DNA of 64,000 nt from NCBI GenBank assembly GCA_964404855.1, contig CAYOLO010000001.1, forward strand, positions 595,396-659,395, written 5' to 3'. Under the pieces are notes generated by a model. That model was given only the letters and a program-made list of their open reading frames with translations, searched no databases and was not told the DNA's origin. A program made the translations under genes and the position numbers. Shown piece by piece: positions 1-46,866 of this stretch. Origin of the DNA: an uncultured Gammaproteobacteria bacterium (GTDB lineage Bacteria; Patescibacteriota; Microgenomatia; CAYQLK01). Numbering within the stretch: position 1 is the first letter of the stretch; each line of letters starts with the position of its first letter.

Positions 1-321
1 ACCATTGCAAGAGCTGTAATTTTTGATGACGCGGCTCTGACACCTATGAGAAATAAGCCGTTTGTCGAAGTAATTACCGTCGCTAAAATAGACCTTAAAA
101 AAGGTGATAAACTAGACGGAATTGGATTTTATATGACATACGGATTGTGTGAAAATACAGAGACGGCTAGAAAAGAAAACCTTTTGCCAATAGGGCTTAG
201 TGAGGATTGTGTTTTGACGAGAGATATCAAAAAAGATGAGGTTTTAACATTTGATGATGTTACTCTTCCCGAAGGTAGGTTGTGCGACGAGTTATGGAGA
301 GAACAGTTTGAATTATTATAA
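1..321 (+). CDS. C-terminal fragment of SAF-domain oxidoreductase-like protein (gene starts upstream of window)
   Basis: Frame is open from base 1 with no stop before the listed ORF at 46..321. The C-terminal motif LTRDIKKDEVLTFDDVTL is typical of SAF domains. Confidence 0.4.
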   Translation, partial: TIARAVIFDDAALTPMRNKPFVEVITVAKIDLKKGDKLDGIGFYMTYGLCENTETARKENLLPIGLSEDCVLTRDIKKDEVLTFDDVTLPEGRLCDELWREQFELL

Positions 322-11188: not shown

Positions 11189-12490
11189 CTATGACACAAT
11201 ACTTCTTATGCGTTCAAATTGTTTTTTTTGCCTTAGATTTCTGTGATAAGTGATAGCAAATCTGTGTGATTCGTCTCGGATTTGTTGAAGAAGCAGTAGT
11301 GCGGGAGAATTTCTCTCTAAGAGTATTGGCCTTGGTTCGTTTGGTATAAATATTTCTTCAAGTCGTTTGGCAAGGCCAATTATAGGAATATTAATATTGT
11401 TATCCTGCAGTACAGAATAAGCTGTAGAAACTTGTCCTTTGCCTCCATCGATTACAAATAAGTCAGGAAGTGGCCAAGCGTTTTTTAGTCTTCTCTTTAA
11501 CATTTCTCTATGCATTGCAAAATCGTCTGGAGTATCCTTGGTTTTAATGCGAAATCTTCGATATTGACTCTTATCGGGGGCGCCATTAGTTAAAACAACC
11601 ATTGACCCTGTGGCATTTGTTCCTTGGAAATTACTAATGTCGTAACATTCGATTCTTTTTGGTGTTGTTGATAAGTTAAGGATTTTTTTTAGGGTTTTAA
11701 TCTTTTGTAAATTAAGATCGGATAATAGATTAGGAGATTTAAGATACTCTTCAGGATATCGGACTTTTTGAGTTACATAAGTTAGACCTTCAATCTGTTT
11801 TTTAATACTTAACGCATCCTCAAATCTATGATCTTTTGAGGCTTCTAACATTTGTTTGTTTAAGTCAGTAATAATTTTGCGATATTTTCCAGACAAAAAT
11901 TTGATTAAAATCTTAAGATTTTTTTTATATTGTAGACGATTAGTTTCTGATCTATATGGATCTGGGCACAGCCCAAGATGTACATACAAACAAGGTCTTT
12001 TGTCGGCGTTATGTGTACAAAATGGAATTACTCTTCTAATGTTTTTAAGAAAATATGTAACTGTTTTTGATGATGGATATGGGCCAAAAACATAATCCCC
12101 CCTTTTGATTTTGTATTTTGGTTTTCTGATTGCCAGAACTTTTGGAACCTCAGAACTAAAGTCAATTTTTATATATATAGGGCTTTTATCGTCTTTGACA
12201 ACGATATTGTATTTTGGGAGATATTTTTTGATTAAATTAGCCTCCAAAAGCAAGGACTCTACCTCTGTTTCAACTTCGATATATTCAATCTTTCGGATTT
12301 CTTCAACTAGTTTGGCTGTTTTGGGTAATAATTTTTCGGGCGGTTTGAAATAACTACTAACTCTTGACCTGAGATTAACTGATTTACCAACATAAACAAC
12401 TCTCCCTGAGTCATCTCGATAGATGTATACGCCTGGAGTTTGTGGTAGAGTTAGAAATTTTTTCCGGTCAATTATTTTACCGCCGATCAT
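11189..12490 (-). CDS. uvrC: excinuclease ABC subunit C (short form lacking C-terminal HhH region)
   Basis: N-terminal GIY-YIG (YIYRDDSGRVVYVGKSVNLRSRVSSYF), UvrBC-interaction region, C-terminal RNaseH-like IIGLAKRLEEIF. Only 433 aa. Confidence 0.85.
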   Translation of the reverse strand: MIGGKIIDRKKFLTLPQTPGVYIYRDDSGRVVYVGKSVNLRSRVSSYFKPPEKLLPKTAKLVEEIRKIEYIEVETEVESLLLEANLIKKYLPKYNIVVKDDKSPIYIKIDFSSEVPKVLAIRKPKYKIKRGDYVFGPYPSSKTVTYFLKNIRRVIPFCTHNADKRPCLYVHLGLCPDPYRSETNRLQYKKNLKILIKFLSGKYRKIITDLNKQMLEASKDHRFEDALSIKKQIEGLTYVTQKVRYPEEYLKSPNLLSDLNLQKIKTLKKILNLSTTPKRIECYDISNFQGTNATGSMVVLTNGAPDKSQYRRFRIKTKDTPDDFAMHREMLKRRLKNAWPLPDLFVIDGGKGQVSTAYSVLQDNNINIPIIGLAKRLEEIFIPNEPRPILLERNSPALLLLQQIRDESHRFAITYHRNLRQKKQFERIRSIVS

Positions 12491-12495
12491 AAATT

Positions 12496-14373
12496 TTAGC
12501 TTTGCGGAAGTGGTTCAGAGTGTTTTTGTTTTATTTTTTTGAGGCTAAGTACTGTGACACCAATTCCGAATAGCAATATTAACAAATATATAATTATTTG
12601 CGAAAAAAATACTGGCCTAATAGTAATTACGCCTTGAATAACTTGATCTTGATAGATGATTTTGATTGGGTATTTTTCGTTAGTAAAGAAATTATTGTTA
12701 GTTAGATCAAATTTATAGGAGTTGACCGAATAGGCTGGAAGGGATAAAACTTCGATTGATTTACCGCCTGATATTGGCGCATCAGTCTCGATTGTAATTT
12801 TTTGATCAATTACTGATTTTTGTCCAAGGTTAGAAAGTGTAATTGTCCCTGTACCTCCGGTTCCGCCAATAAAATGATTAGGAAGGTCGAGTTTAAGATT
12901 AACTTTGAGATCCTGAGTTGGAACCTCGCTGGCAAACTCAACTTTTACATCTTTTTGATCAGAAGCAGTTTTGTAGCTACCAGCAGGAAGCGGATATTCA
13001 GATGAATAACCTTTTTGTGTAAATGTGATGTGATTAAAATCGAGTTTGGTAAAAAAATCTAATCCCCCTGTTGTTGAACCCCAAGTTGGGTCAATTTGAA
13101 TCCAGCCGCGCTCGTTGTCGTAATATTCCGGCCAAGCGTGCAAAATATCGGTTGTGCTTGAAGCTAACGATAATGGACGAAGTCTTGAGTTTTGAGTGTT
13201 GGCATAACCGTTAACTTCGCGAGCAGGAATACCTGCCATGCGAGCGAATGTAATAAATAGATCGGTAAATTCCATACATACACTATTTGCAGGATTATCA
13301 AATGCGACTCTTGAACCCTGCCTGGTAATCGTTGCATCATCTAGTCTTTTTTCATTGTAAGTAAGGTAGGTGGTGACAAAGTCATAAATATCCTTCGGGG
13401 TTTTTAGTGTTGAGGCTTTTTCTCTCAAAATCGGGTCAGTTACATCCCAATATTTGTCGCTTTGGGTATATTTTTGCATCTGCTCATCAGTAAGTGGGAT
13501 GACAGGAAAATCTTTGGGTTGATGTGTTACTTCAGCGAACCCTTGGTATGTCACGACAACTTCCTTTGCGGCCGGAAGTTTGAATCTAGCAATATAGTTA
13601 CCATCAGAATCGACCGTTATAGCTTCTGGCTGTGGGTCGATTTTCGTAGTGTATATTTTTTGATATGCATTGTCAGGAGGGAGTGCAATTTCGGAATATA
13701 CCCCTCTTAAATTGTCATTTTTGAGGTGGTAGGTTAAGTTAAGTTTGTAAATTTGTTTCTCTCCAAAAGAACTTGAGACGCCTTTTTGGGATATCTTGGT
13801 AACATCGAATGAATAAACGGTTTTGGATGTTCCGTTAATTGTAGTTTTTTCGGTTTTTACAGGTTCTGGATTAATAAAAGCAACAGGACCAAACGAATCA
13901 GGTACAGCCATGTGTACATTGTAGGAGCGTACTTCGTCAGTTTTGCTTAGTTTGGGAATAGAAATTTCCCAGATAATTCCATTTTTGACAGTTAACTCGT
14001 TGGCGTCGTAATTAAGTTTCCAATTAAGTTTTTTACCAAGCCCAACAACTCTTTGGTTAAAGGTGACAGCTAGTTGGGTTTTGTTATTTTCAAATGTTTG
14101 TTCGACGTCCAAAGGTCCTGATAAATCAGAAGCTGAAATGTTTTCTGGCTTAGTTTGGCCAAGTGAAAGGTTAAACTTAGTTGCATAAAAACGACTTGTG
14201 TTGTTTTCAAGGGAAATATTTTGGCTAACTTTTGTTTTACCGTTTAAGTCGACATCGTATGTGACGTCATAATCGGCAGCGAACTCGCCTTCAGCTGAAA
14301 CGTTTGTGTTAACGATAAGTGTTAGGGCAAAAAATGATAAAAATAAAAAAAAAGTTCGATGAATTAATTTCAC
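12496..14373 (-). CDS. secreted transglutaminase-like domain protein with C-terminal TM anchor
   Basis: Signal peptide. Cys core motif SVCMEFTDLFITFARMAGIPAREVNGY, His (HAWPEYY) and Asp (IDPT) of the transglutaminase-like catalytic triad. C-terminal TM plus basic tail. Confidence 0.75.
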   Translation of the reverse strand: MKLIHRTFFLFLSFFALTLIVNTNVSAEGEFAADYDVTYDVDLNGKTKVSQNISLENNTSRFYATKFNLSLGQTKPENISASDLSGPLDVEQTFENNKTQLAVTFNQRVVGLGKKLNWKLNYDANELTVKNGIIWEISIPKLSKTDEVRSYNVHMAVPDSFGPVAFINPEPVKTEKTTINGTSKTVYSFDVTKISQKGVSSSFGEKQIYKLNLTYHLKNDNLRGVYSEIALPPDNAYQKIYTTKIDPQPEAITVDSDGNYIARFKLPAAKEVVVTYQGFAEVTHQPKDFPVIPLTDEQMQKYTQSDKYWDVTDPILREKASTLKTPKDIYDFVTTYLTYNEKRLDDATITRQGSRVAFDNPANSVCMEFTDLFITFARMAGIPAREVNGYANTQNSRLRPLSLASSTTDILHAWPEYYDNERGWIQIDPTWGSTTGGLDFFTKLDFNHITFTQKGYSSEYPLPAGSYKTASDQKDVKVEFASEVPTQDLKVNLKLDLPNHFIGGTGGTGTITLSNLGQKSVIDQKITIETDAPISGGKSIEVLSLPAYSVNSYKFDLTNNNFFTNEKYPIKIIYQDQVIQGVITIRPVFFSQIIIYLLILLFGIGVTVLSLKKIKQKHSEPLPQS

Positions 14374-14429
14374 GGCAGGTGTTTAGATATTAATAATAGC
14401 TAAAAACTGAACAAAATAATAATTTTTAC

Positions 14430-17351
14430 CTAAATTAGTTTGGAAAGAAATTTTGCAGTATGAGATTTGGACACTTTGGAGACTTCAATTGGTGTACCTT
14501 CAGCAACAACAGTTCCACCACCATCGCCTCCTTCGGGACCAAGATCAATAATCCAGTCTGCGTTTTTGATGACATCTAGATTGTGTTCAATAACAACAAT
14601 CGTATTTCCCTGCTCGACAAGTCTCATTAAAATATTAAGAAGTTTTTCGATATCAGCAAAATGAAGACCGGTTGTTGGTTCGTCAAGAATGTATAAGGTT
14701 TTGCCTGTTGAGCGTTTAGATAATTCGGAAGCAAGCTTAACGCGCTGAGCTTCTCCCCCAGAAAGGGTTGGGGCGGGTTGGCCAAGTTTGATGTATCCTA
14801 AGCCAACATCGACAACGGTAGCTAGTTTGTTCTTAATCGAAGGTATGTTGTTAAAAAACTCTAAGGCTTCTTCTACTGTCATATCTAATACCTCAAAAAT
14901 ATTTTTGTCTTTGAAATGAACCTCTAGAGCTTCATCGTTGTAACGTTTGCCAGTACAAACTTCACAATCGACATAAACATCTGGAAGAAATTGCATTTCA
15001 ATCTTAACCTGACCTTCACCCTCACAAGCTTCACATCGACCGCCTTTAACATTGAATGAGAATCGTCCTGATTTGTATCCACGAATTTTGGCTTCGGTTG
15101 TTGAAGCAAAAAGCTCGCGAATTGGTGTAAAAATACCCGTGTAAGTGGCAGGATTGGAGCGTGGAGTTCTACCGATTGGTGATTGGTCTATCATTATGAC
15201 CTTGTCTAGGCTCTCCGTGCCCATTATTGTGGTGTGACTACCTGGGCGCTCTTTAGCGTGATAAAACTGCTGAGCAAGACTTTTATAAAGAATGTCGTGT
15301 ACAAGGGTTGATTTACCTGAACCAGAAACACCTGTAAAGCAGACAAATTTGCCCAAAGGAATGGTTACATCAATACCTTTAAGGTTGTGTTCGGTAGCGC
15401 CAATTATCGTTAACTCTTTGCCGTCGTGCGGATTAATAAATGATCCAGATTTGGTGGTAATTTTTTTCTTATCAGATAAATATTTTCCAGTTAGCGATTT
15501 AGGGTCTTTTATAATTTGTTGAGGAGTGCCTTGAGAAACAATTACCCCTCCGTGTTCGCCAGCACCTGGTCCAAAATCAAAAATATAGTCTGATTCCAAC
15601 ATCATGTCGCGGTCGTGTTCAACAACTAGAACAGAGTTGCCTAAATCACGCAGTTTCTGAAGTGTTCCAATTAGCCTTACATTATCTCTTTGGTGAAGAC
15701 CAATTGATGGCTCGTCCAAAACATAAAGCACACCAGAAAGACCTGAGCCGATTTGTGAGGCTAAACGGATTCTTTGCGCTTCTCCACCTGCTAAAGTTGT
15801 GGCGGTACGTGATAGGGATAAATAGTCTAGGCCAACATCGATTAAGAACTGTAATCTGGCAGTTATTTCTTTAAGGATTGGTTCAGACACTTGATTATCT
15901 CGCGCATTACCGGCAAATGAAGTTTTAATACTTTTAACCCATTCCAGTGAGTTACGGATTGATTTTTTGGAGACTTGTTCAATATTTAACCCATCGACCG
16001 TGATAGATAACGCTTCCGGCTTGAGCCTTGTGCCTTTACAAGTTGGACAAGTAAGGATACGCATAAATTTTTCGATTTCACCGCGAATGTAGCCTGATTC
16101 TGTTTCCCGATATCTACGCTCAAGATTAGGAATCACACCTTCAAAGGTTGTTTGCCACTCCGCACTTTTACCAAATCGGTTCTCGCCTTGAACTTTAAAT
16201 ACTTTCTCTGAACCGTAGAGTAAAAATTTACGATCAGCATCAGTTAGGTCCTTAATTGGTGTATTAATGGAAAAATGAATTTGTTTGGATGCCTCCTCTA
16301 GAAGCCTAGAAAACCATGTTTCGTGTGTAGAAAGCCTAGACCAAGGTAAAATTCCACCTTGGGCAATTGTTAAATTAGGGTTAAATACCAACTCTGGTTC
16401 AACTTCTAGTTTTGTACCAATACCTGTACAGGTTGGACAAGCTCCGTGGGGCGAGTTAAAGGAAAAAGTTCTGGGTTCAATTTCTGGCAGTGAAATATTA
16501 TCAAATGGACAGGCAAACTTTTCACTAAAAAGATGATCTTCTAGTTCGGTGGGAAAATCAGGAATTTCAAACGAGGCGTCTTGAATTTTGGCAATGATTA
16601 GATTGCCTTCAGCCAGCTTAAGTGCTGTTTCTACAGACTCAGAAAGCCTTTGTTTGTCGGCAACAGGCAAAACAAGCCTATCGATCACGGCATCAATTGA
16701 ATGTTTATTGGTTTTGATTAAGGTAAATTCATCCTCGATGTCATGGATTTGGTCATCAACCCTAACTCTAGTAATACCTCGTTTTCTTAAATCTGTGAAA
16801 AGTTGTGAAAATTCGCCTTTTCTGTCTCTAACAATTGGCGCCAAAACTAGCACACGCACTGGAGGTTTAGCTTTAATATCCCCTAGTTTTTGGATTTCAT
16901 CTACGATTTGAGCAGCAGATTGATGTTTGACCTCGCGGCCACAAACAGGGCAATGCGGATGGCCGACTCTAGCAAAAAGTAACCTTAAATAGTCATAAAT
17001 CTCTGTAATTGTACCGACGGTCGAGCGAGGATTGCGTGAAGTGGATTTTTGGTCGATAGAAATCGCTGGAGAAAGACCGTCTATCTGGTCTACATCAGGC
17101 TTATCCATAACACCTAAGAACTGTCTAGCATAACTAGATAGCGATTCTACATAACGTCTTTGTCCTTCAGCGTAGATAGTATCAAAGGCAAGTGATGATT
17201 TGCCTGAGCCAGATAGACCTGTAAAAACAACAAGCTGATTGCGTGGAATTTGTAATGTTAGGTTTTTGAGATTATGTTCACGGGCGCCAAAAACAGAAAT
17301 GAACTCTTGATTTTTGCTGGTTTTTTTCGGGTTATCTTTGGTGCTAGCCAT
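14430..17351 (-). CDS. uvrA: excinuclease ABC subunit A
   Basis: 973 aa with two ABC ATPase modules ([20 protein letters not shown]), LSGGE signature motifs and zinc-finger cysteines. Confidence 0.95.
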
Positions 17352-17436
17352 GAAGAGATATTTTAGTACAAGACGCTTGTTATTTCAAGGCTATTGTAGT
17401 TGATATGCTTAAGCCTGTAACCTATAATATTCCGCT

Positions 17437-19350
17437 ATGGCAAACAAAGTTGAAATAACTGATTCAAAGATTGCGGCTTTGGAGTTTGAAAGAGAAAATG
17501 GAAATCTATTTGGCCTTACTGAACAGGAAAGAGTCAATCTGCTTAAATACGAAGGAGAACTACTAGATTTTCGACCTCAGCTTGTAACTTCTTTTACGGC
17601 TCTCGACCGATTAAACGGAATTACGAAAGAAAGAGACTTAAAAATTAAAGCGGTTCTGGATGACTTAAGAGAACAGTCTGATCAGATAAAAATTGCACAA
17701 AACGTTAGCGTTCTATATCTGACGATTCTGGAAATTGGCGAGCGAGAAGGCTGGACACAGACACAAATTGCTGAGGTATTTGATAAACAACTTGATTTTA
17801 ATAATGAAGTTTCAGTTGTTACCAAAGATTTAGCTAAAAAAAGGTTAAGAGGTGGTGAACTGCCAAGTAATAGAATAATTGGAGCTGCATATAATAAATT
17901 AGCAAAACGTATTCCTAGTTGGTACAAGCTGGACATAACAGCTTGGCAAAATTTTATTTTTTCCTCGTTTGGTGCTCAACTTGATATTGAAAAAGAGCAA
18001 CTATCTGGAATTTGTTCTACCAGCATTGGGAGACTTGAGGGAACGTATAGGATTACGAACGAGGATATTTTGCCAGATTGGATGAATAATGGTGGGGTTG
18101 AGACTGGTAACCCAGATAAAGTTGTCGTAACAGAGGACTTAAAAGAGGATGAACAAGGCAAACAAAGACTGATTGAACAGTTTGAATATCATTCATCTAA
18201 AAGAAGTTATTTGGTAGAATCGGCAAGAAATAAAGGCAGAAAAACAATTTCACGAAATGTTGGTAAATATCGAAGACTTTTTCCATATGATGAGCTTGAT
18301 GTTGCACAATTAGTCATGTTTTTGGCGAATACCGATGGAATGACTTATTACGATGTTGACCAACAAACAATTGACCAGCTTAGTCCTGCACAAATTAACG
18401 AAAAGGCTTTGATTGCTGAAAAAAAAGAAGATTGGTTTATAAGGCGATTTGCAGAAACTGCGGATTTGTCTGAGGAGATGGTTAGAATTTTTTTAAAAAA
18501 ACGATTAGAAGACATGAGGTTTTTCGAAGGAACTGAAGAGGAAAAAGAAAGAAAAATTGCAGCTCTATTTTCTGATTTTGGACAGAGCGAGGAGATCGCT
18601 ACATTAAGAACGGTGGACAAAAAAACCGCACAAAGATTAACTTTTGATGTTCGACCAATGCTAGCGGAAATGGATCAAGAGGCACTAGAAACACTACAGT
18701 TAAAATTTGAAAACAATCCATTTGCCTCAAGAGCTGAATTTGTTACCGAGCTTGCTTGTGAGATTGTGAATTCTTTTTGGTCTGGATCAAATGATAAAGA
18801 TATAGCACGTTTTAAGGCTGAATATAAAAAATTCGTAATAAATTGGCTTAAGAATAACTGGAGAGTGGCGTACGCATCGCTTTATCACAGACTTCATAAC
18901 TCAGGTATTTTTGATTCTCCTACTCTAAATCCAACCAAGGAAGAAATTGTGAGTGAAGATTCTGAAGATATTGAATTTGCAATCACTGAGATCAAAATGG
19001 GTAGTTTGCTTGATTGGAAAGTGTTTTTTGATGTCAATAAAAATGGAGATGTGCGCATGGAAGCGTTAGAGGGAGACAGTCTAGATGCGTTGGAAGAACG
19101 ACTAGAAGAGTTATTAATTAAACATAGAATAAGCTGTTCTATTAAATTATCGAGCGTAATTCATACATTAGAGTGGGCTGCAGGACTGCCACAAGAAGTA
19201 TTACAGCTTATGATTCGTGAAACTGTAAACGGACAAGAATATTTAAAAATTAAGAGGGGTAATATTCGACTATTTTTTCAAATTAACCAAAGTCAGAAAC
19301 AATTGGTCTTTTTTGTATATCAAAAACAAGACAAAAGCTATCATTTTTAG
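17437..19350 (+). CDS. large acidic hypothetical protein with RelE/ParE-like C-terminal region
   Basis: 637 aa, helical and acidic. The last ~40 aa (KIKRGNIRLFFQINQSQKQLVFFVYQKQDKSY) match the RelE/ParE toxin-fold signature. Confidence 0.5.
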   Translation: MANKVEITDSKIAALEFERENGNLFGLTEQERVNLLKYEGELLDFRPQLVTSFTALDRLNGITKERDLKIKAVLDDLREQSDQIKIAQNVSVLYLTILEIGEREGWTQTQIAEVFDKQLDFNNEVSVVTKDLAKKRLRGGELPSNRIIGAAYNKLAKRIPSWYKLDITAWQNFIFSSFGAQLDIEKEQLSGICSTSIGRLEGTYRITNEDILPDWMNNGGVETGNPDKVVVTEDLKEDEQGKQRLIEQFEYHSSKRSYLVESARNKGRKTISRNVGKYRRLFPYDELDVAQLVMFLANTDGMTYYDVDQQTIDQLSPAQINEKALIAEKKEDWFIRRFAETADLSEEMVRIFLKKRLEDMRFFEGTEEEKERKIAALFSDFGQSEEIATLRTVDKKTAQRLTFDVRPMLAEMDQEALETLQLKFENNPFASRAEFVTELACEIVNSFWSGSNDKDIARFKAEYKKFVINWLKNNWRVAYASLYHRLHNSGIFDSPTLNPTKEEIVSEDSEDIEFAITEIKMGSLLDWKVFFDVNKNGDVRMEALEGDSLDALEERLEELLIKHRISCSIKLSSVIHTLEWAAGLPQEVLQLMIRETVNGQEYLKIKRGNIRLFFQINQSQKQLVFFVYQKQDKSYHF

Positions 19351-19421
19351 TTTTTTACTTGCTGTACTCAACCTATAGTTTATTATTTTGACAAATAGGA
19401 GTAAAATATCCGTGGTGCAAA

Positions 19422-19721
19422 GTGCAAAATTCAGTTCAGACATGCCACGTCTGGAATGAAAATTGTACAAACCCCGTTGCACCCATACGAGGCGTAGAGA
19501 AAGTGGCAAAGAAAATGTCCAAACCAGGACGGGCTGGGCTCAATGCTGTCGATGACAGATTTGAGATCACCCACATCAATGACGCAGGATGTGAGTATGA
19601 TCCTCAGATTCCAACTGGGACATACTACACGGTCCACGGTAGCGATGGGCGGCCTCTTGAGTTGTTCGTCGGCCAAGGTGTTGGACACCTGAACTCTGGG
19701 AAGGCTGGTTTTTACGACTAG
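19422..19721 (+). CDS. hypothetical protein in anomalously GC-rich segment (GTG start; may instead be non-coding)
   Basis: 99-aa ORF with no SD and no recognisable domain. Local GC is far above the flanks. Followed by an intrinsic terminator. Confidence 0.25.
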   Translation: MQNSVQTCHVWNENCTNPVAPIRGVEKVAKKMSKPGRAGLNAVDDRFEITHINDAGCEYDPQIPTGTYYTVHGSDGRPLELFVGQGVGHLNSGKAGFYD

Positions 19722-19736
19722 CTGACCACCCTCAAA

Positions 19737-19772
19737 GCGAGGCGGAAATAATAACTCCGCCTCTTTTTTTTT
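19737..19772 (+). terminator. rho-independent terminator
   Basis: gaggcgga-aataataac-tccgcctc hairpin followed by a run of 9-10 T. Confidence 0.8.
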
Positions 19773-19790
19773 GTTTACAAATATTAATTT

Positions 19791-21782
19791 TTATTTAAGA
19801 ATATCTATTTGATTACGAATTTCTATTGCCTTTTCAAAATCTAGATCGTTTGCGGCTTCGTGCATCTGACGCATCAAAAATTTAATAATTTTGGTTTTTT
19901 CATCAGGCAAAATTACTCCTGTTTTGGCTTTTTCAATGGCATTTATAATTACATCGTCAAGTTTAGGTACTTCGGGTGCATCTAGATCTCTGTCGGAAAG
20001 TTTGTCTCTGACTCTTTTAGTAATTCCAATGGGAGTGATTTTATGTTTGAGATTGTATTGGAGTTGGATTTTGCGCCTGCGAGTTACCTCGTCTATCGCA
20101 GCCTGCATCGAGTCGGTGGTCTTGTCGGCATACATAATGACGCGTCCATCGAGATGACGGGCTGCTCTACCCATTGTCTGAATAAGCGAAGTTCTGGACC
20201 GCAAAAACCCTTCTTTGTCGGCGTCGAGAATAGCCACAAGCGAGACTTCTGGTAGATCTAAACCCTCTCTAAGAAGGTTGATTCCGACAATGCAATCGTA
20301 TTTCCCAAGACGCAGGTCATCTAAAATATCTGTTCTGTCGAGTGTGGTGATATCAGAGTGTAAATATTGAACATTGATACTTTTTTCTTCTAGATATTTT
20401 GATAAGTCTTCAGCCATTCTTTTGGTTAATGTAGTAACCAAAACCCTTTGACCTTTTTCAACTCTGTTTTTGACCTCAACTATTAAATCATCAATTTGTC
20501 CTTCGGTTGGTCTGATATCAATTTCTGGATCAACAAGCCCCGTTGGTCTGATAATTTGCTCAATAACCTTGCCGTTTGAAAGCGAAACTTCATATTCATT
20601 AGGGGTGGCTGAGACATAAACGGCTTGATTAATCTTACGACTGAACTCGTCAAATTTTAAAGGCCTGTTGTCTAGTGCTGAAGGTAAGCGAAAACCAAAA
20701 TCGATTAAGGTTTGTTTGCGTGCCTGGTCTCCGTTATACATACCTCTGATTTGAGGCAAGGTAATATGTGATTCATCGACCATTAATAAATAATCATCTG
20801 CAAAATAATCGAGTAATGAATATGGTGGTTCGCCTGGTTTTCGTCCGTCAAAATATCGAGAGTAGTTTTCGATACCGTTGCAGTAACCTAACTCTTGAAT
20901 AATTTCCATATCGTAATTGGTTTTTTGGCTGATTCGGTGAGCCTCAAGATCTTTACCAAGACGTTTGAGCTCTTTGACGCGCAAATCAAGGTCAGCCAAA
21001 ATTTGTTTTCGGCCTGCTTCAAACGTATCTCTGGAGGCCTGATAGTGTTTGGCTGGATAAAGAATCGCTTTTTGTAGTTCTCGAACCGTTGTGGCGTTAA
21101 TTGGGTCAGTTACCGTGATTTTGGTAATAGTATCGCCACTAAAATACAACCTTAATGGATTTTCTTCATAAGCAGGAAAGATTTCGATTATCTCTCCCCT
21201 TACTCTATAAACACCTCTACGAAAATCAATCTCATTGCGTTCGTATTGGATTCTGTCAAAGGATTTGAGTAGCTCGGATCTGGTAATTGTCTGCCCGACT
21301 GACATTTCGGCAATATAGCGATTGTATTCAACTGGTGAACCAAGGTTGTAGATACACGAGACCGAGGAAACTACAATTACGTCCTTACGTGTCATTAAAT
21401 TCATAGTTGCAGAAAGTCTAAGTTTGTCAATCTCTTGATTGATATCAGTTTCCTTCTCTATGTAGGTGTCTGTTTGCGGAATATAGGCTTCTGGACGGTA
21501 GTAATCGTAATAACTAACAAAATAACTAACGGCGTTATCGGGGAAAAATTCCCTAAACTCTTGATAAAGTTGGGCGGCTAAAGTTTTGTTGTGAGAAATA
21601 ATTAATGTTGGCCTTTGGGTGTTGGCGATGACGTTGGCCATGGTAAAAGTTTTACCTGAACCAGTGACACCAAGTAATGTTTGGTGCTTTTCTTTCGATT
21701 CGACGCCTTTAGTCAGGGTCTCAATCGCCTGTGGCTGATCGCCTGAAGGTTTATAGTCTGATTTGAGTACAAAGCCTGACAT
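19791..21782 (-). CDS. uvrB: excinuclease ABC subunit B
   Basis: 663 aa with helicase motifs (GVTGSGKT), beta-hairpin region and C-terminal UvrB/UvrC interaction helix. Confidence 0.95.
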   Translation of the reverse strand: MSGFVLKSDYKPSGDQPQAIETLTKGVESKEKHQTLLGVTGSGKTFTMANVIANTQRPTLIISHNKTLAAQLYQEFREFFPDNAVSYFVSYYDYYRPEAYIPQTDTYIEKETDINQEIDKLRLSATMNLMTRKDVIVVSSVSCIYNLGSPVEYNRYIAEMSVGQTITRSELLKSFDRIQYERNEIDFRRGVYRVRGEIIEIFPAYEENPLRLYFSGDTITKITVTDPINATTVRELQKAILYPAKHYQASRDTFEAGRKQILADLDLRVKELKRLGKDLEAHRISQKTNYDMEIIQELGYCNGIENYSRYFDGRKPGEPPYSLLDYFADDYLLMVDESHITLPQIRGMYNGDQARKQTLIDFGFRLPSALDNRPLKFDEFSRKINQAVYVSATPNEYEVSLSNGKVIEQIIRPTGLVDPEIDIRPTEGQIDDLIVEVKNRVEKGQRVLVTTLTKRMAEDLSKYLEEKSINVQYLHSDITTLDRTDILDDLRLGKYDCIVGINLLREGLDLPEVSLVAILDADKEGFLRSRTSLIQTMGRAARHLDGRVIMYADKTTDSMQAAIDEVTRRRKIQLQYNLKHKITPIGITKRVRDKLSDRDLDAPEVPKLDDVIINAIEKAKTGVILPDEKTKIIKFLMRQMHEAANDLDFEKAIEIRNQIDILK

Positions 21783-22342
21783 TAGTCGATGGGGATTTCT
21801 AGCACTACTTCGCCTTCAATTTGACCTCTATCTTGAGTAATTAAATTCTTTTCAGCTTTAGTGAATTCTTTATTAAGGCTTTTGGCTAATTTTGTAAAAA
21901 TTTTACTCTTAGCAAAATCGCCATTTTTTTGTAAATCTGAAATTAAACCAACCAGCTGCTCTCTAATTAAATTGACTTCCCTGCGGGACAATTGTGTTTT
22001 ACCAGGAAACCTGCCAAATAATTGATTAAGTGTGGCAAATTTTTCAGACAAAGTTGCACTAGCGTTTTCCAGTGGAGCAAGTGGACTAAAACTTTCTATG
22101 TCGATGTTTGTCCTACTAGTATCCTGGTCGACAATGCGTTGTTCGACAAAGACTGAGGAAAGAAATTCCAACATTTCAGCTGAAAGATCAACATCAAGAA
22201 CTTGTGAGTCGCCTCTGGAGGTGCCAATTATTTCACTTGCAGCGTCAATAACCGCTTCGGCATTAAAAAGTCTATCCTCCTGAAGAATTCTTTCTGCGGC
22301 CGCTACAGCATCATGTTCGTGTTCTGATTCTAGATGAAACAT
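21782..22342 (-). CDS. acidic hypothetical protein, translationally coupled to uvrB
   Basis: Its stop overlaps the uvrB start (ATGA). 186 aa, pI acidic, no known domain. Confidence 0.45.
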   Translation of the reverse strand: MFHLESEHEHDAVAAAERILQEDRLFNAEAVIDAASEIIGTSRGDSQVLDVDLSAEMLEFLSSVFVEQRIVDQDTSRTNIDIESFSPLAPLENASATLSEKFATLNQLFGRFPGKTQLSRREVNLIREQLVGLISDLQKNGDFAKSKIFTKLAKSLNKEFTKAEKNLITQDRGQIEGEVVLEIPID

Positions 22343-22403
22343 AGTTATTTGGCTTTAATTTGAGCCTCATTTTACCATATTTTGCCCGAAGCTTCTAAAG
22401 AGC

Positions 22404-23459
22404 TTGTTAAATAGTGTAATAATAAATACAGGTATGAATGATTTAGAACAAAGAGTTCCGGTTGGTGTAGCAAATATTGCAAAAATAATGCCTAATCCTG
22501 AGGCGCTACTTACAATTCCGCAAACGGAAAGAAACCCTGGAGGCCTAGTTGATGCAAGAATTGAAAATTTACGCAAACAACTGAGAGAAAAATACAAAGA
22601 TATGCCACCAGAACGAATTGAATTCGTTTTAGATGTCTTTTTCGGACCTTTTAACTTCAAGGAGTTTGACCGTGAAAAGAGATATTCAAGGGATGAGGCT
22701 AGAGAGATTAAAACTCGATCAGCTAGTATTCAACACTTAATGACACATATGGCACTACATGCTGGAAGCGAAAATGCTGATCCTCAATTTCAATTAAAAA
22801 TAGCAAACCAACTACAAAAATATCAAGAAATTGCCTCAAGTCGATTCGGACGAGATATGGAGCTTAACAAGTTTTTGAAAGGTGTTATGGCGGAAATTGG
22901 TGTGGTCAAAGCACTATTATCCGCTGGATGTGAAGTTGTTCTTCCAGATTATCAACCGCAAAAATCATTCGAGGACAGTCCAGTTTGTCAGATGGATGTT
23001 GATCGTGGAATTGATTTAATTGCCGTAAAGGGTGCGGATATTTTCTTAGTCGATGCTAAAGGCACTAGATACTTCGAGGAACCGACTACAAAAAAAACTA
23101 AAGTTGATGCTAATGGAAACCCACTGGTAAGAAATGCGGTAGATATCGTAGAACAACAAAAATATGAATGGAATTTACCTAGTTTGCGGGGAGTTTCGGG
23201 GGTTGAGGATGTTTTTAGACAACATCCAAGCGCTACTGTGCATAAACTTATGATAAAAGTTCCAACCAGTGAGGAATTTTTGCCACCTATTAATTTACAA
23301 GATGGTAGGCCTGTTGGAAATTCCATTAGATCATTCGCTAGGTTGAACTCTGGTCTTACTAATGATATAATTATGGGTCTAGATAGATCTCGATTGTCCC
23401 GTATGGGATATCAACTATCAACATCAAACGAGGAGGCTGTCAATGCAAAGTCAGCATAG
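22404..23459 (+). CDS. hypothetical protein with C-terminal PD-(D/E)xK (restriction-endonuclease-like) nuclease motif
   Basis: Motif GIDLIAVKGADIFLVDAKG follows the D...(D/E)xK pattern of Hjc/NucS-like nucleases. Confidence 0.5.
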   Translation: MLNSVIINTGMNDLEQRVPVGVANIAKIMPNPEALLTIPQTERNPGGLVDARIENLRKQLREKYKDMPPERIEFVLDVFFGPFNFKEFDREKRYSRDEAREIKTRSASIQHLMTHMALHAGSENADPQFQLKIANQLQKYQEIASSRFGRDMELNKFLKGVMAEIGVVKALLSAGCEVVLPDYQPQKSFEDSPVCQMDVDRGIDLIAVKGADIFLVDAKGTRYFEEPTTKKTKVDANGNPLVRNAVDIVEQQKYEWNLPSLRGVSGVEDVFRQHPSATVHKLMIKVPTSEEFLPPINLQDGRPVGNSIRSFARLNSGLTNDIIMGLDRSRLSRMGYQLSTSNEEAVNAKSA

Positions 23460-23652
23460 ACACACGCCCGTTCGTATTACTGGCGAAAACAATGTACCAG
23501 CTCCACTTATTGACGAGCGCGAGCTTGAGATAATTGGCGAAATCGCGGAACAGATCGAAAAGGAATTTCCTGAAGATCCAGACCAAGATGGCATTGTGCC
23601 AACGATTGCGGACGAACCAGCTGGAAACAGCGACACGACCGACCATGAGTGA
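23443..23652 (+). CDS. small highly acidic protein overlapping the upstream gene
   Basis: 69 aa with a D/E-rich C-terminus. Start overlaps the stop of the preceding gene by 17 nt. Followed directly by a terminator. Confidence 0.45.
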   Translation: MQSQHRHTPVRITGENNVPAPLIDERELEIIGEIAEQIEKEFPEDPDQDGIVPTIADEPAGNSDTTDHE

Positions 23653-23675
23653 AACATCTCATGGTCTTTTTTTTA
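23641..23675 (+). terminator. rho-independent terminator
   Basis: gaccatgag-tgaaacat-ctcatggtc perfect 9-bp stem followed by TTTTTTTT. Confidence 0.85.
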
Positions 23676-23801
23676 TAGGATACTATTGAATAATAAACAT
23701 TAGTCTTGATTTTCGGGTTTTCTTTGTTATAATTATTTTAGACTGAATGAACTTGTGGAAGCAGTACAAGGTCAAAATTACAAAATAAAAAAACAAAAAA
23801 T

Positions 23802-24416
23802 ATGCCAGTTACTTTATACAAAAGACAAAAACAAATTTTAGATTTTATTAATCAGTATGTTTCTGTAAACGGACACTCACCGACATTGCAGGAAATTGCT
23901 GATGCTCTATCACTAAGATCACTTGCAACTGTTCACGAACATCTGCAGGCACTAAGTCGAAAAGGAATAATCAGACGTTTTGAGGGTTCTGTTAGAGGAA
24001 TCGAAGTTTTAGATAAAAAAATTGGTGATTCTTTACAGGGTATTGAACTCCCTTTGTTGGGGTTTATTGCTGCCGGCGCACCGATTGAACCGTACACTGA
24101 CCCAAATGCAACTTTTTCTGTCTCCCCTGCTTTGGTTTCGTCAAAAAAAAGAAGTTATGTTTTGCAAGTAAAAGGCGATTCGATGATCGAAGACGGAATT
24201 CTAGATGGGGACTTTGTTGTAATTGAGGAGCAAAATGTGGCGAATAATGGCGATATTATTGTTGCCTTACTTGAAAACGGAGTTGCGACTTTAAAACGAT
24301 TTTTTAAAGAAAAAGACCGTATCAGATTACAGCCAGCTAATAGCACCATGAAGCCTATTTATGCCAAAAAGGTGACTGTTCAAGGTAAGGTTGTGGGAGT
24401 TATTAGGAAATTTTAA
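23802..24416 (+). CDS. lexA: LexA repressor (S24 peptidase)
   Basis: N-terminal winged HTH (TLQEIADALSLRSLATVHEHLQALSRKG). Cleavage-site region and S24 catalytic VKGDSMIEDGI...K. Confidence 0.9.
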   Translation: MPVTLYKRQKQILDFINQYVSVNGHSPTLQEIADALSLRSLATVHEHLQALSRKGIIRRFEGSVRGIEVLDKKIGDSLQGIELPLLGFIAAGAPIEPYTDPNATFSVSPALVSSKKRSYVLQVKGDSMIEDGILDGDFVVIEEQNVANNGDIIVALLENGVATLKRFFKEKDRIRLQPANSTMKPIYAKKVTVQGKVVGVIRKF

Positions 24417-39966: not shown

Positions 39967-41148
39967 TCACCGGTGACACTGCGCGAGTGCAGCCTCAGCT
40001 GGTTTACCCATTGGACTAAACCCCAAATCAGGCTTGTTTGGGTCCGGCAGAGTGAGATCCACTTGCCACCAATACAAACCATTGATAAGGGGAACGAAGA
40101 CTTGGCAGGTCGCTTGATAATAACGAAGCTGGGCTTCGTAATCAGCCGGCGACTCAGATAGGTAGTTCCACGGCTTTTGGTACGCTCCCTGTCTGGGGAG
40201 AATTCCTATTTCCGTAAAAACTACAGTCTTGGGGTCATACCCCTTACTGGTAATGTCGGCTATCCAACGCTGCCAGCCAGCAACAAGCGAATCAACGCTT
40301 GCACCAGTTGGTACATCGAGCGGATAGTAGGCATCGATTGAAGGAAAGTTCAGATCGCTGGCAAAGCCGGGGGCTTTGACGTCCCAGTTAGCCGAATATG
40401 TGATTTGGCCATCGTACTGGGTACGAACTACAGCGATTAGCGCTTTCCAAAGAGCGACCTCTGGCTCAAGCGAGACAAACTCGGTGCCGACATTGAGAAC
40501 GGCAACTTTTTCTTCTTGAGCAAGTTTGGCGTAGCCAACCAGAAGTGAGGAGTAGCTGTTAAACCACTGTCCTTTATCTGTTGGACTGAGCTGGCCTCGC
40601 CATTTTCCGTCGGCAACCAAAGAGGACTCATCCAGAATCGGCCTAAGCATAACAGTGAAGTTACGCTTGTGTGCCTCTCGGATAAATATCCTGATGTTGT
40701 CGTCGGTCGGAGTCTTTTTGGGGTCCTTGTAAACCTCCACTGATTGCCAGTTCGACTGGAAAACAGGAAAGACTAGGCTGACAGAATTGATGTTCAGCTC
40801 TGCCAGCCTATTGAGAAGTTTGGGTGCCTTTTCAGCAAAATCTCCTCCGTCGCTGTACACCAAAACCGAAACGCCTGCATGATATGCCAGCGAATCAGTT
40901 CGAGGACTTACCACTCGGTTGATTTTGGGAGTTGGTGTAGCGGTCGGAGTCGATTCTTGAGTTGGCGCGACTGTCTCACTTTCGGAAATTGGAGTTCCGA
41001 TTGTGGTAGTAGCATCTGCAACTTGAGTGCTATCAGATTGCTCCTTAGCACCAGTTTGCCCACAAGACACGACACAGAAAACTGCTACAGCCAGGCTAAC
41101 GAATAGTCCCGCCGACAGCAGAAGGTCGTTTTGGCGCTTCGTGATCAA
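39967..41148 (-). CDS. lipoprotein, glycoside hydrolase-like TIM barrel (GH-A clan-like)
   Basis: Lipobox VVSCGQ. NVGTEF and VVFTEIGI candidate catalytic glutamates. GC-rich. Confidence 0.45.
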   Translation of the reverse strand: MITKRQNDLLLSAGLFVSLAVAVFCVVSCGQTGAKEQSDSTQVADATTTIGTPISESETVAPTQESTPTATPTPKINRVVSPRTDSLAYHAGVSVLVYSDGGDFAEKAPKLLNRLAELNINSVSLVFPVFQSNWQSVEVYKDPKKTPTDDNIRIFIREAHKRNFTVMLRPILDESSLVADGKWRGQLSPTDKGQWFNSYSSLLVGYAKLAQEEKVAVLNVGTEFVSLEPEVALWKALIAVVRTQYDGQITYSANWDVKAPGFASDLNFPSIDAYYPLDVPTGASVDSLVAGWQRWIADITSKGYDPKTVVFTEIGILPRQGAYQKPWNYLSESPADYEAQLRYYQATCQVFVPLINGLYWWQVDLTLPDPNKPDLGFSPMGKPAEAALAQCHR

Positions 41149-42613
41149 GATAGTCCTTCTCCGTAACCAACCCGTGGTTGGTCTTCTCCCAGAAGTGCGG
41201 ACGGGTAGCCAGCTGGTATAGGGCTTTCCAAGTCGCGAAACTTAGTATTGCCCAGTACAGCGGAGCAAGAACCATCCACTTGATGTTGCCATGCAATCCT
41301 CTGACCTTGCAGCCCATCATCACGTAAAGGACGAACAAAACGTTGCCCAACGCGATAGAAAAGATGCCGAGATAGAAGATCGGAAGCGGATACAACTCTT
41401 GGATGAAGGTTGCATTCGTCGCCTGATAGGCAAGCGTCATGAACCAGAAGATCGGATTGACCAGCAGTGTAAGAGGCGTGGTCATTACGATCACCATGAA
41501 GGAGACGAAGTTGACGAAACCCAGATCCCTGTAGAGGCTGACTGGGTTGCGTGAGTGGACGAGGAAAGTAATCATCCCACCCTTCTTCCAGCGCGAACGC
41601 TGGCGAACCAGGTTGCCGAGATGACTGTTGGCTTCTTCCCATGTCACACTGTCCATCAACTTGACCTGAAGACGGCGACGGGCGATACGAATGCCCATAT
41701 CAATATCTTCGGTCACGTTGTACATGTCCCAGCCTCCCAACCCAAGTAGGGTTTGGGTACGGAAGTGATTGGATGTGCCTCCCAAAGGGACAGGCATTCC
41801 TAATCGTCCGAGCCCTGGAAGGATCAGATTGAAGTAGGTCGCATACTCAGCGCTGAAGAACTTCGTAATCCAGTTGGTCTGGGGGTTGAAGTACTCCAGT
41901 TTGGCTTGAATACACGCTACTCGCCTACTGACTTTGCGGAAACAGACGACAGCTTTTTTGAGCTGATCTGGTTCTGGTCGGTCTTCGGCGTCGTAGATAA
42001 CGACAAATTCTCCTGTTGCCCTTTTCAGACCCTCATTACAAGCCTTGGGCTTGGTTTTGAGGTTAGAGTCAGGCATGATCAACACCTCAAAATGAGGCGG
42101 AAGCGCTTGCGAGTTAATCTCGCCAAGAGTCTGGGAGTCCTTTTCTTCCAGAAGCAGAATAATCTGCAGTCGGTTGGTAGGATAATCCAGATTGGTGAGA
42201 TTCACGATTAGCTTGGAAGCTATTTCGTGCTCGTCAAAGAGTGGAACGAGGATTGTGTACCTCGGCAACTCAGGTCCATTAGCAAGAGCATCTAGCTCTG
42301 CCATCGAAACCTTGATGAGTGCCGATTCCAGTGACTTGACTGTCAGCAGGCTCTTGAAGATGATGACGGTGACATAGATCAGAGTGATCGTCCCCGCGAA
42401 CCCCAAAAGAACCGGCATATAGCCAAACATGATGATGCTAGCAACCACACAAGCAACAATTGCGAGTGCGGTAATGCTTTGCGGTATGGTCAGAATAACC
42501 TCAGCGGTCTCTGACTTGGTGCGCGGAGCGAATTTATTTACTACCCCGCGTCCATTTTTGACATGTTCTGGTCCGATCAAAGCTTCCTCCTGTGGGAAGA
42601 AAGAACTGACCAA
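41096..42613 (-). CDS. membrane glycosyltransferase family 2, processive type (QxxRW)
   Basis: IYDAEDRPEPDQL, VRQRSRWKKG and multiple TM segments. GC-rich homolog of the GT2 at 1552..2799. Confidence 0.8.
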   Translation of the reverse strand: MVSSFFPQEEALIGPEHVKNGRGVVNKFAPRTKSETAEVILTIPQSITALAIVACVVASIIMFGYMPVLLGFAGTITLIYVTVIIFKSLLTVKSLESALIKVSMAELDALANGPELPRYTILVPLFDEHEIASKLIVNLTNLDYPTNRLQIILLLEEKDSQTLGEINSQALPPHFEVLIMPDSNLKTKPKACNEGLKRATGEFVVIYDAEDRPEPDQLKKAVVCFRKVSRRVACIQAKLEYFNPQTNWITKFFSAEYATYFNLILPGLGRLGMPVPLGGTSNHFRTQTLLGLGGWDMYNVTEDIDMGIRIARRRLQVKLMDSVTWEEANSHLGNLVRQRSRWKKGGMITFLVHSRNPVSLYRDLGFVNFVSFMVIVMTTPLTLLVNPIFWFMTLAYQATNATFIQELYPLPIFYLGIFSIALGNVLFVLYVMMGCKVRGLHGNIKWMVLAPLYWAILSFATWKALYQLATRPHFWEKTNHGLVTEKDYLDHEAPKRPSAVGGTIR

Positions 42614-42647
42614 GGGTGGAGGCGAAGATGTGACTCCTCACTCCCAC

Positions 42648-44348: not shown

Positions 44349-44861
44349 TTAGGCTTTACCCTCCGAAGAAGTCTTCTGATGGATGACGACAGGGACTTGG
44401 GGTTCGTGGTGCTTTATTGCGAACACGAACCTGTGACTGGCGATGTACGACAGCACAAGTCCAGCGACCGTGCCGAAAACAAGTGACGGGAGGTGGTTGA
44501 AAACCAGAATCGACAAACCAAACACAAAAGTGTTGGTAATCAAGCTGGTAAGAGCCATGATATTGAACTTCACGAGTGAAGCAATCCCACCTAGGAAACC
44601 ATGAGCTGGTTTCTTTCTGTCACTCCATGTGAAGTGAAAACTCAGGAGGTAGTTGGTTTGGGTTGAGACAATGAAGGCAAAGGCGTTAACCGCCGTTATC
44701 TGCCACCAAAGTTCAAACCAAGTGGTTGAGAGAATACCGAAGAAGAGCGCGTACTGGAGGCTCGTGCAAACGAGGCCGACAGTCAAAAACTTGATGACGC
44801 GCTGGAGGTTAATCCGCTCGCCAAAGGTCTGAAGGACAGGACCGGATACGATTGGAACCAC
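44349..44861 (-). CDS. GtrA-family polysaccharide synthesis membrane protein
   Basis: 4 TM segments; KFLTVGLVCTSLQYALFFGIL is typical of GtrA. Start codon uncertain. Confidence 0.6.
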   Translation of the reverse strand: MVPIVSGPVLQTFGERINLQRVIKFLTVGLVCTSLQYALFFGILSTTWFELWWQITAVNAFAFIVSTQTNYLLSFHFTWSDRKKPAHGFLGGIASLVKFNIMALTSLITNTFVFGLSILVFNHLPSLVFGTVAGLVLSYIASHRFVFAIKHHEPQVPVVIHQKTSSEGKA

Positions 44862-45109
44862 GGAAGAAACTCTCCATTTCTCGAATACGTTTTTAAGGTA
44901 CTCCGCTCTGGTGTTGCGACGCCCTATAGTTCTGTCGTCAAGATGACGGAAAAACTTTTGGGATTACGCAATTAATGTTTTCATAAGCTCGATTATTTAG
45001 TCCGATAACACTGATGTGTTTTACGGTCTATTTCGACCTATAGTTGCGGAGCTTGGATTATAGGTAAAAACTATCAATAGGTCAAGCGCGAAGTTTATAA
45101 ATGAAGAGA

Positions 45110-45760
45110 TTAATTATTAGCAAAAACGAAGGCGGCGTAGAATCCGGCAATTCCTCCGCAGCCGATTTGCCAGCTCGGGTTCTGTAAAGCTTCCCTATGT
45201 CCTGTTAGTGATCTATCCCAACCAAACTCAACGATATGTACTCCAGATAGAGCTTGACCGCCGTACAAAACTTCGCCGAGGTGGATGAATTCGTTCTGAC
45301 TTTCGCCGTATTTATTAAAACCTGCATGATTGTCTAATCCGCCATTGGCAACTTGTTCCTCTGCGCGTTTTTGAGCAATATCACAGATTGTGGAATTAGA
45401 AGTCAAAGTATTAAGCCCGTGGGCTTTGCGGTAGTCATTGACGGCTGCAAATAACTCATCGCGCGTGGACATATTTTCGGAAATTGGAACAGAAAATTCG
45501 GTTAGATGCTCATCGACTTTGCGAACTGACCAATCTGGAGTTGGAGTGGGAAGCTTTTTATTTTGAGTTTGAAGATTGTTTTTGATTGAGCCTGTTTCAA
45601 CAGCACTTGTTTCGATTTTGGCTTCAGATGTGGCAGTATTAGTCCTTAATAGACTACGGCCAATTTTTTCAATATTTGTAAGCTGAGAAGGCAGATTGAC
45701 AGCGTAGGTAAGAAAAACAATACCAACAAAAACAGTGATAATTACCAATATTTTGACCAT
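45110..45760 (-). CDS. CAP/SCP/PR-1-like domain protein with N-terminal signal anchor
   Basis: ORF trimmed to the MVKILVII start at 45760. C-terminal GHREALQNPSWQIGCG matches the CAP-domain GHYTQ...GC signature. Confidence 0.6.
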   Translation of the reverse strand: MVKILVIITVFVGIVFLTYAVNLPSQLTNIEKIGRSLLRTNTATSEAKIETSAVETGSIKNNLQTQNKKLPTPTPDWSVRKVDEHLTEFSVPISENMSTRDELFAAVNDYRKAHGLNTLTSNSTICDIAQKRAEEQVANGGLDNHAGFNKYGESQNEFIHLGEVLYGGQALSGVHIVEFGWDRSLTGHREALQNPSWQIGCGGIAGFYAAFVFANN

Positions 45761-45800
45761 TTGGCTAAATATCCTATCATAGGATAAGGATTTTTTAATT

Positions 45801-46835: not shown

Positions 46836-46842
46836 AGAAAAT

Positions 46843-46866
46843 GCCGCCCTTTTTACGGGGCGGCAA
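46843..46866 (-). terminator. GC-rich hairpin, likely terminator for the minus-strand small-gene pair (weak for the + strand)
   Basis: tgccgccc-loop-ggggcggca stem with a U-rich tract on the minus-strand side. Confidence 0.5.

Follow-up and report, generated by a model that had tools for sequence, protein, structure and literature searches.

The window analyzed here is a 64,000-nucleotide stretch of contig CAYOLO010000001.1 (660 kb) from an uncultured bacterium with a small, low-GC genome, and the subject of this work is an open reading frame (ORF) in it that encodes a protein of 637 amino acids (aa). The coding sequence runs from an ATG at 17437 to a TAG stop at 19348-19350 on the forward strand and thus occupies positions 17437-19350. 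It is divergent from uvrA (14430-17351, reverse strand), from which an 85-bp intergenic region separates it, and uvrB lies at its 3′ side on the opposite strand (19791-21782, reverse strand). Further genes in the surroundings are uvrC (11189-12490), a gene for an uncharacterized 186-aa protein (21782-22342) whose coordinates touch the end of uvrB, a gene for an uncharacterized 351-aa protein (22404-23459, forward strand) that is divergent from the uvrB operon, and lexA (23802-24416). The identities of uvrA, uvrB, uvrC and lexA in the window were derived from Pfam annotation of syntenic relatives.

A preliminary description of this DNA, made by reading the sequence, had singled out the ORF as encoding an acidic protein inserted between uvrA and uvrB. 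The ORF list confirmed this, and the calculated isoelectric point (pI) is 5.12, with 107 Asp/Glu against 87 Lys/Arg residues. Both the start of the protein (MANK or MTNK) and its length are common to orthologs at 41-86% identity. The ratio of nonsynonymous to synonymous substitution rates (dN/dS, ω) ranged from 0.03 to 0.15 for the gene and from 0.11 to 0.15 for the N-terminal part; in the closest ortholog pair, residues 1-520 gave a value of 0.11 and residues 521-637 one of 0.03. Sequence identity between orthologs was 36-84% in the N-terminal part and 64-95% in the C-terminal part. The 637-aa ORF is a real gene under purifying selection.

The preliminary description also stated that the protein carries no recognizable domain apart from its extreme C-terminus, and indeed no Pfam, NCBIfam or PDB-sequence match was obtained with it; three C-terminal fragments likewise matched nothing in Pfam, NCBIfam or the PDB sequences. 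The fold of the C-terminus was examined by structure prediction. An AlphaFold2 (AF2) model of residues 520-637, built from a 69-sequence alignment, reached a predicted local distance difference test (pLDDT) score of 89.7 and a predicted template modeling (pTM) score of 0.83, and has the topology β-β-α-α-α-β-β-β-β. The elements assigned in this 118-aa model are a strand at 9-13, helices at 30-43 and 52-63 (plus 67-72), and strands at 75-78, 81-88, 91-98 and 103-110, followed by an 8-residue tail. When the model was compared with the PDB using Foldseek, the top 19 matches were all toxins that belong to the RelE/ParE superfamily (RelE, RelE2, PfiT, YoeB, HigB and HigB2), with probabilities up to 0.97 and target-normalized template modeling scores of 0.5-0.6. 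A separately built model of the full-length protein, which is informative for the C-terminus only, returned the same RelE-superfamily matches. The fold comparison with RelE, ParE and YoeB that the preliminary description had proposed as a check thus turned out in favor of the suggested relationship.

The RelE-like group of BECR proteins has been described as comprising a pre-β element, a pre-α element, an α-helix, strands β1-β4 and a C-terminal extension, with a conserved Tyr at the C-terminus as its defining feature (bioRxiv 10.64898/2026.08.28.747851). The order of the elements and the placement of residues in the AF2 model fit this definition. According to the model, the Foldseek matches and the weak Pfam hits described below, the RelE-type BECR domain measures ~115 aa and covers about residues 521-637 (18997-19347, forward strand). 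A RelE/ParE signature had initially been noticed in the last ~40 residues, KIKRGNIRLFFQINQSQKQLVFFVYQKQDKSY. This segment is present as described and belongs to the best-conserved part of the family; its extent was underestimated, as the domain is almost three times as long.

The only sequence family that recurs among the relatives is Pfam ParE_toxin (PF05016). It was matched by the C-terminal fragments of 18 out of 69 relatives at E-values up to 1 (best E = 3e-4), while any other Pfam family was found in no more than 2 of the same 69 fragments. The resemblance to RelE/ParE exceeds what chance would give. Among 75 full-length members ParE_toxin was again the sole recurrent family (8/75), and where detectable the match covers positions 12-86 of the 89-position profile. 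The best relative scored 20.9 bits, which is below the ParE_toxin gathering threshold of 23 bits, and the window protein and its three C-terminal fragments gave no ParE_toxin match even at E-values up to 10. Scans with the window protein and its fragments remained empty, and the signal emerged only when many relatives were scanned individually.

Conserved basic residues and a tyrosine occupy positions in the domain that correspond to the active site of RelE. An hhalign comparison with Escherichia coli RelE, of which the sequence was verified, placed K604, K606, R607 and R611 on strands β2/β3 (codons at 19246-19269, forward strand) opposite RelE K52, K54, R56 and R61; the register has a probability of 2%, which is not significant by itself, and ends before K630-Y635. 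By inspection, K630 and Y635 in the C-terminal tail (codons at 19324-19341, forward strand) appear to be the analogues of RelE R81 and Y87. In an alignment of 110 members, Lys or Arg is found at position 604 in 106 sequences, at 606 in 104 and at 630 in 105, while R611 is present in 109 and Y635 in 102. These positions are thus 93-99% conserved in sequences that average 21% identity. On the basis of the predicted fold and this conservation, we conclude that the C-terminus is a RelE-type BECR domain of which the active-site positions are kept under strong selection.

The conserved constellation of basic residues and tyrosine speaks for a domain of the RNase type rather than of the gyrase type. 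This bears on the possibility of a DNA-directed factor, either a ParE-like gyrase poison or a repair accessory that is co-regulated with uvrA by LexA. The best Pfam name, ParE_toxin, points in that direction, but PF05016 unites ParE gyrase poisons with RelE RNases, including E. coli RelE (Gerdes, PMC11980606), so the name does not imply gyrase as the target. ParE toxins share the overall fold, and theirs is the only sub-threshold Pfam family that recurs, but gyrase-inhibiting ParE toxins are not RNases, whereas the 637-aa family keeps the RelE-type catalytic residues.

The remainder of the protein, residues 1-520 (17437-18996, forward strand), forms an acidic, soluble and apparently all-helical N-terminal module. 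Its pI is 4.99, with a family median of 5.17, and an acidic linker is present at about residues 490-520. The C-terminal domain has a median pI of 9.06 in the family; that of the window protein has a pI of 6.3, and its last 48 residues a pI of 10. The most conserved motifs of the N-module are P160-x-W162-F/Y, P213-D-W215, E..D238 and P407. The helical nature proposed earlier for the protein is tentative, as the sole structural indication, a full-length AF2 model built from 6 sequences in which residues 1-520 are all-helical, has a low confidence (pLDDT 47). No Pfam family recurred in the N-module among the 75 members, and it gave no PDB-sequence, PADLOC or PHROG match; a search of PDB sequences with the family profile returned only helical low-complexity noise. 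Inspection of the N-part for transmembrane segments, signal-like segments, internal repeats and similarity to the C-domain was negative on all four counts.

A word-indexed homolog search yielded only six full-length, close relatives of the 637-aa protein, and it stayed at close relatives even when family alignments were used as the query. The family was widened by an exhaustive profile search, which found 128 proteins at E ≤ 0.001 among 1.84 billion cluster representatives; the count refers to representatives of clusters at 50% identity. Nearly all members are 600-690 aa long, and 110 of the retrieved sequences measure 590-700 aa. Since the members align almost end to end, the family has one conserved architecture, in spite of a mean column identity of 21% across the 110 members. 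Near-invariant positions are found in both parts of these sequences: P160, W162, P213, W215, D238 and P407 in the N-part and W527, G546, R611, F625, K630 and Y635 in the C-terminus. Ten cluster representatives that were looked up in public sources carried no name, and the family has no Pfam match above threshold and no PADLOC or PHROG match. The family of ~640 residues is otherwise undescribed in the sources searched.

The RelE domain is attached to the N-module in ~95% of the 128 cluster representatives, and among the matches listed at most 7 do not extend to the C-terminus. Two homologs were confirmed to be complete genes that cover only positions 4-514 of the family profile (L023, 332-1987, and L024, 1998-3572; L numbers denote the loci of relatives), and no RelE-like domain is encoded anywhere on their contigs. 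The occurrence of the N-module by itself in L023 and L024 shows that it is an autonomous module. Homologs without the tail had been named beforehand as an observation that would speak against a RelE/ParE relationship; they do exist, but they are rare, and they reveal modularity rather than disproving the fold. Upstream of the N-only homolog in L024 lie a gene with faint similarity to Zeta_toxin and one of the DUF2188 family. One further protein, P0007 (543 aa), consists of the N-terminal half of the family joined to an SBP_bac_5 solute-binding protein and is probably a chimera produced by assembly or gene calling.

The genomic context of the relatives was compared next to the sequences themselves, as had been suggested in the preliminary description, with a split result. 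At identities of at least 41% the position between uvrA and uvrB is retained, in the fixed order uvrC, transglutaminase-like gene, uvrA, 637-aa gene, small ORF, uvrB, 186-aa gene, ~345-aa gene and lexA, in which the 637-aa gene and the ~345-aa gene are divergent. The gene order holds over the whole range of identities between 100% and 41%. The distant members, at ~20-25% identity, lie at unrelated sites: adjoining RibD_C and ECF-transporter genes (L016), within a mevalonate-pathway cluster (L017), after ndk and a tandem paralog (L020), convergent with truB (L021), and within the secE-nusG-rplKA…rplJL cluster (L022). The tandem paralogs in L020 (622-2523 and 2588-4498) share 34% identity, with the RelE-like domain as the best conserved part. 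A comparison of seven neighborhoods (the uvrA/uvrB clade, L014, L016, L017, L020, L021 and L022) revealed no conserved partner gene. We take the location between uvrA and uvrB to be a chance of gene order in this lineage rather than a functional link to the SOS response. Genes for OmpR/PhoB-type Trans_reg_C proteins adjoin family members at three loci (L003, 11976-12599; L006, 11980-12537; L014, 2503-3822), and at two of the three it separates the 637-aa gene from the small ORF.

The intergenic region between uvrA and the 637-aa gene contains two sigma-70-like core promoters. That of the 637-aa gene, TTGATA-17-TATAAT (17400-17428, forward strand), scored 11/12 in a promoter scan, and both of its hexamers (−35 and −10) have been retained in L001, L003, L006, L008 and L010. 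The uvrA promoter, TTGAAA-17-TAAAAT (17360-17388, reverse strand), stands back to back with it. The two genes are therefore divergent, as had been stated, but do not share a promoter: the scan indicates separate, adjacent core promoters. In both genes 8 nt separate the −10 element from the start codon and there is no Shine-Dalgarno sequence, so their mRNAs are predicted to be leaderless or nearly so.

This region is also where regulation by LexA would be expected to leave a trace if the 637-aa protein were an SOS-linked factor, as initially considered. The arrangement that invites this idea is the divergent orientation toward uvrA across 85 bp, within a uvrC/uvrA/uvrB/lexA cluster of 13 kb that is kept at identities of at least 41%, but none of the distant members retains the adjacency, which is confined to one clade. 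A scan of 17352-17436 detected no canonical LexA box at informative mismatch levels using motifs from eight lineages, from which the host's own motif may differ; the same scan found no canonical box upstream of lexA either. A 13-nt palindrome, ACAAG-ACG-CTTGT (17368-17380), does overlap the uvrA promoter. It was considered as a LexA operator and rejected, since it lies in the promoter spacer and is not conserved, since it occurs in L006 and L010, the closest relatives, alone and is replaced by other sequence in L001, L003, L008 and L013.

A different element may be connected to SOS regulation in this lineage. In the 64 kb there are exactly two copies of the motif TTCGGG-N10-TAnAAT, where chance would give 0.05, once at the promoter of the 186-aa/uvrB operon (22369-22390, reverse strand) and once at the lexA promoter (23712-23733, forward strand). 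The spacing between TTCGGG and the −10 element downstream of it is exactly 10 nt, and the motif recurs at the same two sites in relatives. It may be regarded as a candidate for an SOS operator or promoter element specific to the lineage. The uvrA/637-aa intergenic region does not contain it. Because both this candidate element and a LexA box are lacking there, the SOS link is unsupported, and together with the loss of adjacency and the preserved RNase-type residues this makes an SOS-linked or gyrase-directed function very improbable. Apart from the position in this one lineage, nothing connects the 637-aa family with DNA repair, and we see no bearing of it on nucleotide excision repair or on the SOS response.

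Downstream of the 637-aa gene, before uvrB, lies a conserved ORF of ~99 aa (19422-19721, forward strand), which is relatively GC-rich and without a family match. It is followed by a terminator-like hairpin read from the sequence, GAGGCGG-11 nt-CCGCCTC and then T9 (19739-19772, forward strand), which escaped the automatic scan, as its loop exceeds 8 nt. The ORF is possibly co-transcribed with the 637-aa gene. By tblastn it was found at 46-87% identity in all relatives of the lineage, while the distant loci searched, L014-L019, gave no match, and in L003 and L006 a reverse-strand gene parts it from the 637-aa gene. For these reasons it was rejected as an antitoxin at the level of the family.

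The same small ORF would be the immunity gene if the protein were a secreted polymorphic toxin, with the N-part as trafficking module and the BECR domain as C-terminal RNase. Large proteins with a BECR toxin domain at the C-terminus are typical of such systems (PMC3482391), and a small conserved ORF directly downstream in the lineage would suit this arrangement. However, the ORF had no match in the distant loci L014-L019 and is parted from the 637-aa gene in L003 and L006, and the protein has no signal peptide, transmembrane segment, LXG, PAAR, Rhs or other trafficking domain. Furthermore, conservation in the family is highest in the C-terminal domain, which is thus not the variable part. Of the features that mark polymorphic toxins, i.e. 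a trafficking domain, a variable C-terminus and an adjacent immunity gene, none was found, and we regard a role as secreted toxin as highly unlikely.

Taken together, we propose that the 637-aa protein is a soluble cytoplasmic two-module protein that acts as a single-chain, self-regulated mRNA endonuclease of the RelE type, to which we assign a probability of about 50%. By analogy to RelE, the C-domain would enter the ribosomal A site and cleave mRNA there, using K604, K606 and R611 on β2/β3 and K630 and Y635 in the tail as the putative active-site constellation. The N-module would replace a separate antitoxin within the same chain, either by holding the nuclease inactive or by directing it, and the nuclease might be restrained until some signal arrives. 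The outcome would be a self-regulated translation-shutoff or mRNA-decay enzyme encoded by a single gene. A fused antitoxin-toxin and a toxin fold placed in a larger protein, which were both mentioned in the preliminary description, each fit the solitary gene, the acidic N-part and the basic, toxin-like C-part. The N-module may have a structurally novel antitoxin-like role.

In comparison with RelE itself (E. coli, PDB 4fxe and 4v7k; Thermus thermophilus, 2khe), the similarity lies in the fold, the basic residues at the positions of K52, K54 and R61, and the C-terminal Tyr. The differences are that RelE is a stand-alone toxin of ~95 aa whereas the 637-aa protein carries the domain as a tail, that the family has neither a RelB-like nor another conserved antitoxin gene, that its similarity stays below every Pfam threshold, and that the spacing in the tail from the basic residue to the Tyr is shorter. 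A conserved adjacent antitoxin gene, the hallmark of type II toxin-antitoxin systems, is not found with the family.

Also among the closest known systems are fused toxin-antitoxin genes (PMC11980606), which likewise combine in one gene a BECR toxin domain and extra sequence that could neutralize it. The described fusions use small antitoxin domains, namely YefM, ParD, HigA, BrnA, helix-turn-helix (HTH) or MqsA (PMC11980606), whereas the partner in the 637-aa family is a module of ~520 aa without antitoxin or Pfam similarity. No recognizable antitoxin domain (ribbon-helix-helix, Phd/YefM, HTH/HigA, ParD, BrnA or MqsA) recurred in the 75 full-length members. The Gerdes 2025 survey set aside multidomain RelE/ParE proteins without an identifiable antitoxin (PMC11980606), and the 637-aa family fits this class. 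BECR RNase domains within larger architectures also occur in ToxM, in the RelE homolog of PtuXYZ and in the PIN-BECR-Tox2 effectors of Menshen. ToxM is transmembrane, unlike the 637-aa protein, and the 637-aa loci have neither PtuA-like ATPase or restriction-endonuclease neighbors nor PIN, ParB or ABC ATPase partners.

The single-chain concept is also realized in CapRel(SJ46), a fused toxin-antitoxin phage-defense protein in which the toxin and an autoinhibitory or sensor domain reside in one chain without a separate antitoxin. The toxin of CapRel is a toxSAS pyrophosphokinase instead of an RNase, and CapRel is much smaller than the 637-aa protein. A specific sub-case of the single-chain RelE nuclease would be a comparable phage-defense system acting by abortive infection, in which the N-module senses a phage protein and thereby frees the RelE nuclease to stop translation in the infected cell. 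The solitary gene, the toxin domain with an intact active site, the much lower conservation of the N-part than of the C-part in orthologs and the tandem paralogs at 34% identity in one genome are in agreement with such a role, and fused BECR toxin-antitoxin genes are known of which some are defensive (PMC11980606). The genomic data are less favorable. In contrast to CapRel(SJ46), no defense context is evident for the family: in PADLOC-DB 2.0, 0 matches were obtained with the window protein, with six relatives or with three neighboring unknown proteins, a PHROG and viral-contig scan detected no relatives of the 637-aa protein, and the sampled neighborhoods were all of a housekeeping type, without mobile-element, phage or defense signatures or defense islands. 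The stable synteny, the purifying selection on the N-part and the promoter, which appears strong and constitutive, also argue against a defense element. We therefore consider a function in phage defense unlikely, albeit less so than the SOS-linked and secreted-toxin alternatives.

The same observations on context and selection bear on a domesticated housekeeping factor, which would be either a vertically inherited endonuclease associated with the ribosome or an inert module that binds ribosomes or RNA, and would serve routine mRNA turnover or ribosome quality control in a lineage with small genomes. The insertion in the secE-nusG-rplKA…rplJL cluster and the adjacency to truB, purifying selection throughout, the retention of the architecture in about 95% of the 128 divergent cluster representatives, and a constitutive-looking, near-leaderless promoter like that of uvrA are all consistent with it. 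On the other hand, a core gene of a large clade would be expected to form more than 128 clusters at 50% identity, there is no conserved neighborhood with translation genes, and one would not usually expect a core factor to have tail-less variants or a tandem duplication. A housekeeping function of this kind is plausible but, like phage defense, unlikely. A related and similarly tentative possibility is a domesticated RelE, i.e. a vertically inherited, single-chain, ribosome-dependent mRNA endonuclease in which the N-module would couple cleavage to a cellular signal. Such an enzyme might take part in routine mRNA decay or ribosome quality control of a small-genome lineage instead of being a selfish toxin-antitoxin or defense element, an assignment that we also hold to be improbable at present.

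RelE-type nucleases are known almost only as toxins of ~90 aa with a separate antitoxin. With a conserved single-gene family of ~640 aa that keeps the RelE active site under strong purifying selection, lacks an antitoxin gene and lies among housekeeping genes, one may ask by what means a single chain could keep a potentially lethal A-site nuclease under control. The N-module of such a family may be a new type of antitoxin or sensor that acts intramolecularly, or else the toxin fold may have been recruited to normal RNA metabolism. Defining the family would add an architecture that was left unanalyzed in the recent survey of multidomain RelE/ParE proteins.

Some further features of the window concern the neighboring genes. 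The presence of uvrC, uvrA, uvrB and lexA within 13 kb (11189-24416) makes this an unusually compact nucleotide excision repair/SOS neighborhood, and the same 13 kb also encodes a transglutaminase-like protein and five unknown ORFs (637, 99, 186, 351 and 69 aa). The 351-aa protein, for which no Pfam or PADLOC match was found, contains the sequence GIDLIAV...FLVDAKG, which by eye resembles a PD-(D/E)xK nuclease motif. The LexA of the window is no more similar to E. coli LexA than to that of Thermotoga, and the nearest proteins to its UvrB are of the Bacillus type. The Gammaproteobacteria label attached to related metagenome-assembled genomes (L010, L011 and L012) receives no support from these LexA and UvrB similarities. 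The GC content of the window is mostly 35-40% but rises to 0.44-0.51 at 40000-50000; Rfam detected no rRNA in that stretch, which possibly represents foreign DNA or a compositionally distinct set of genes.

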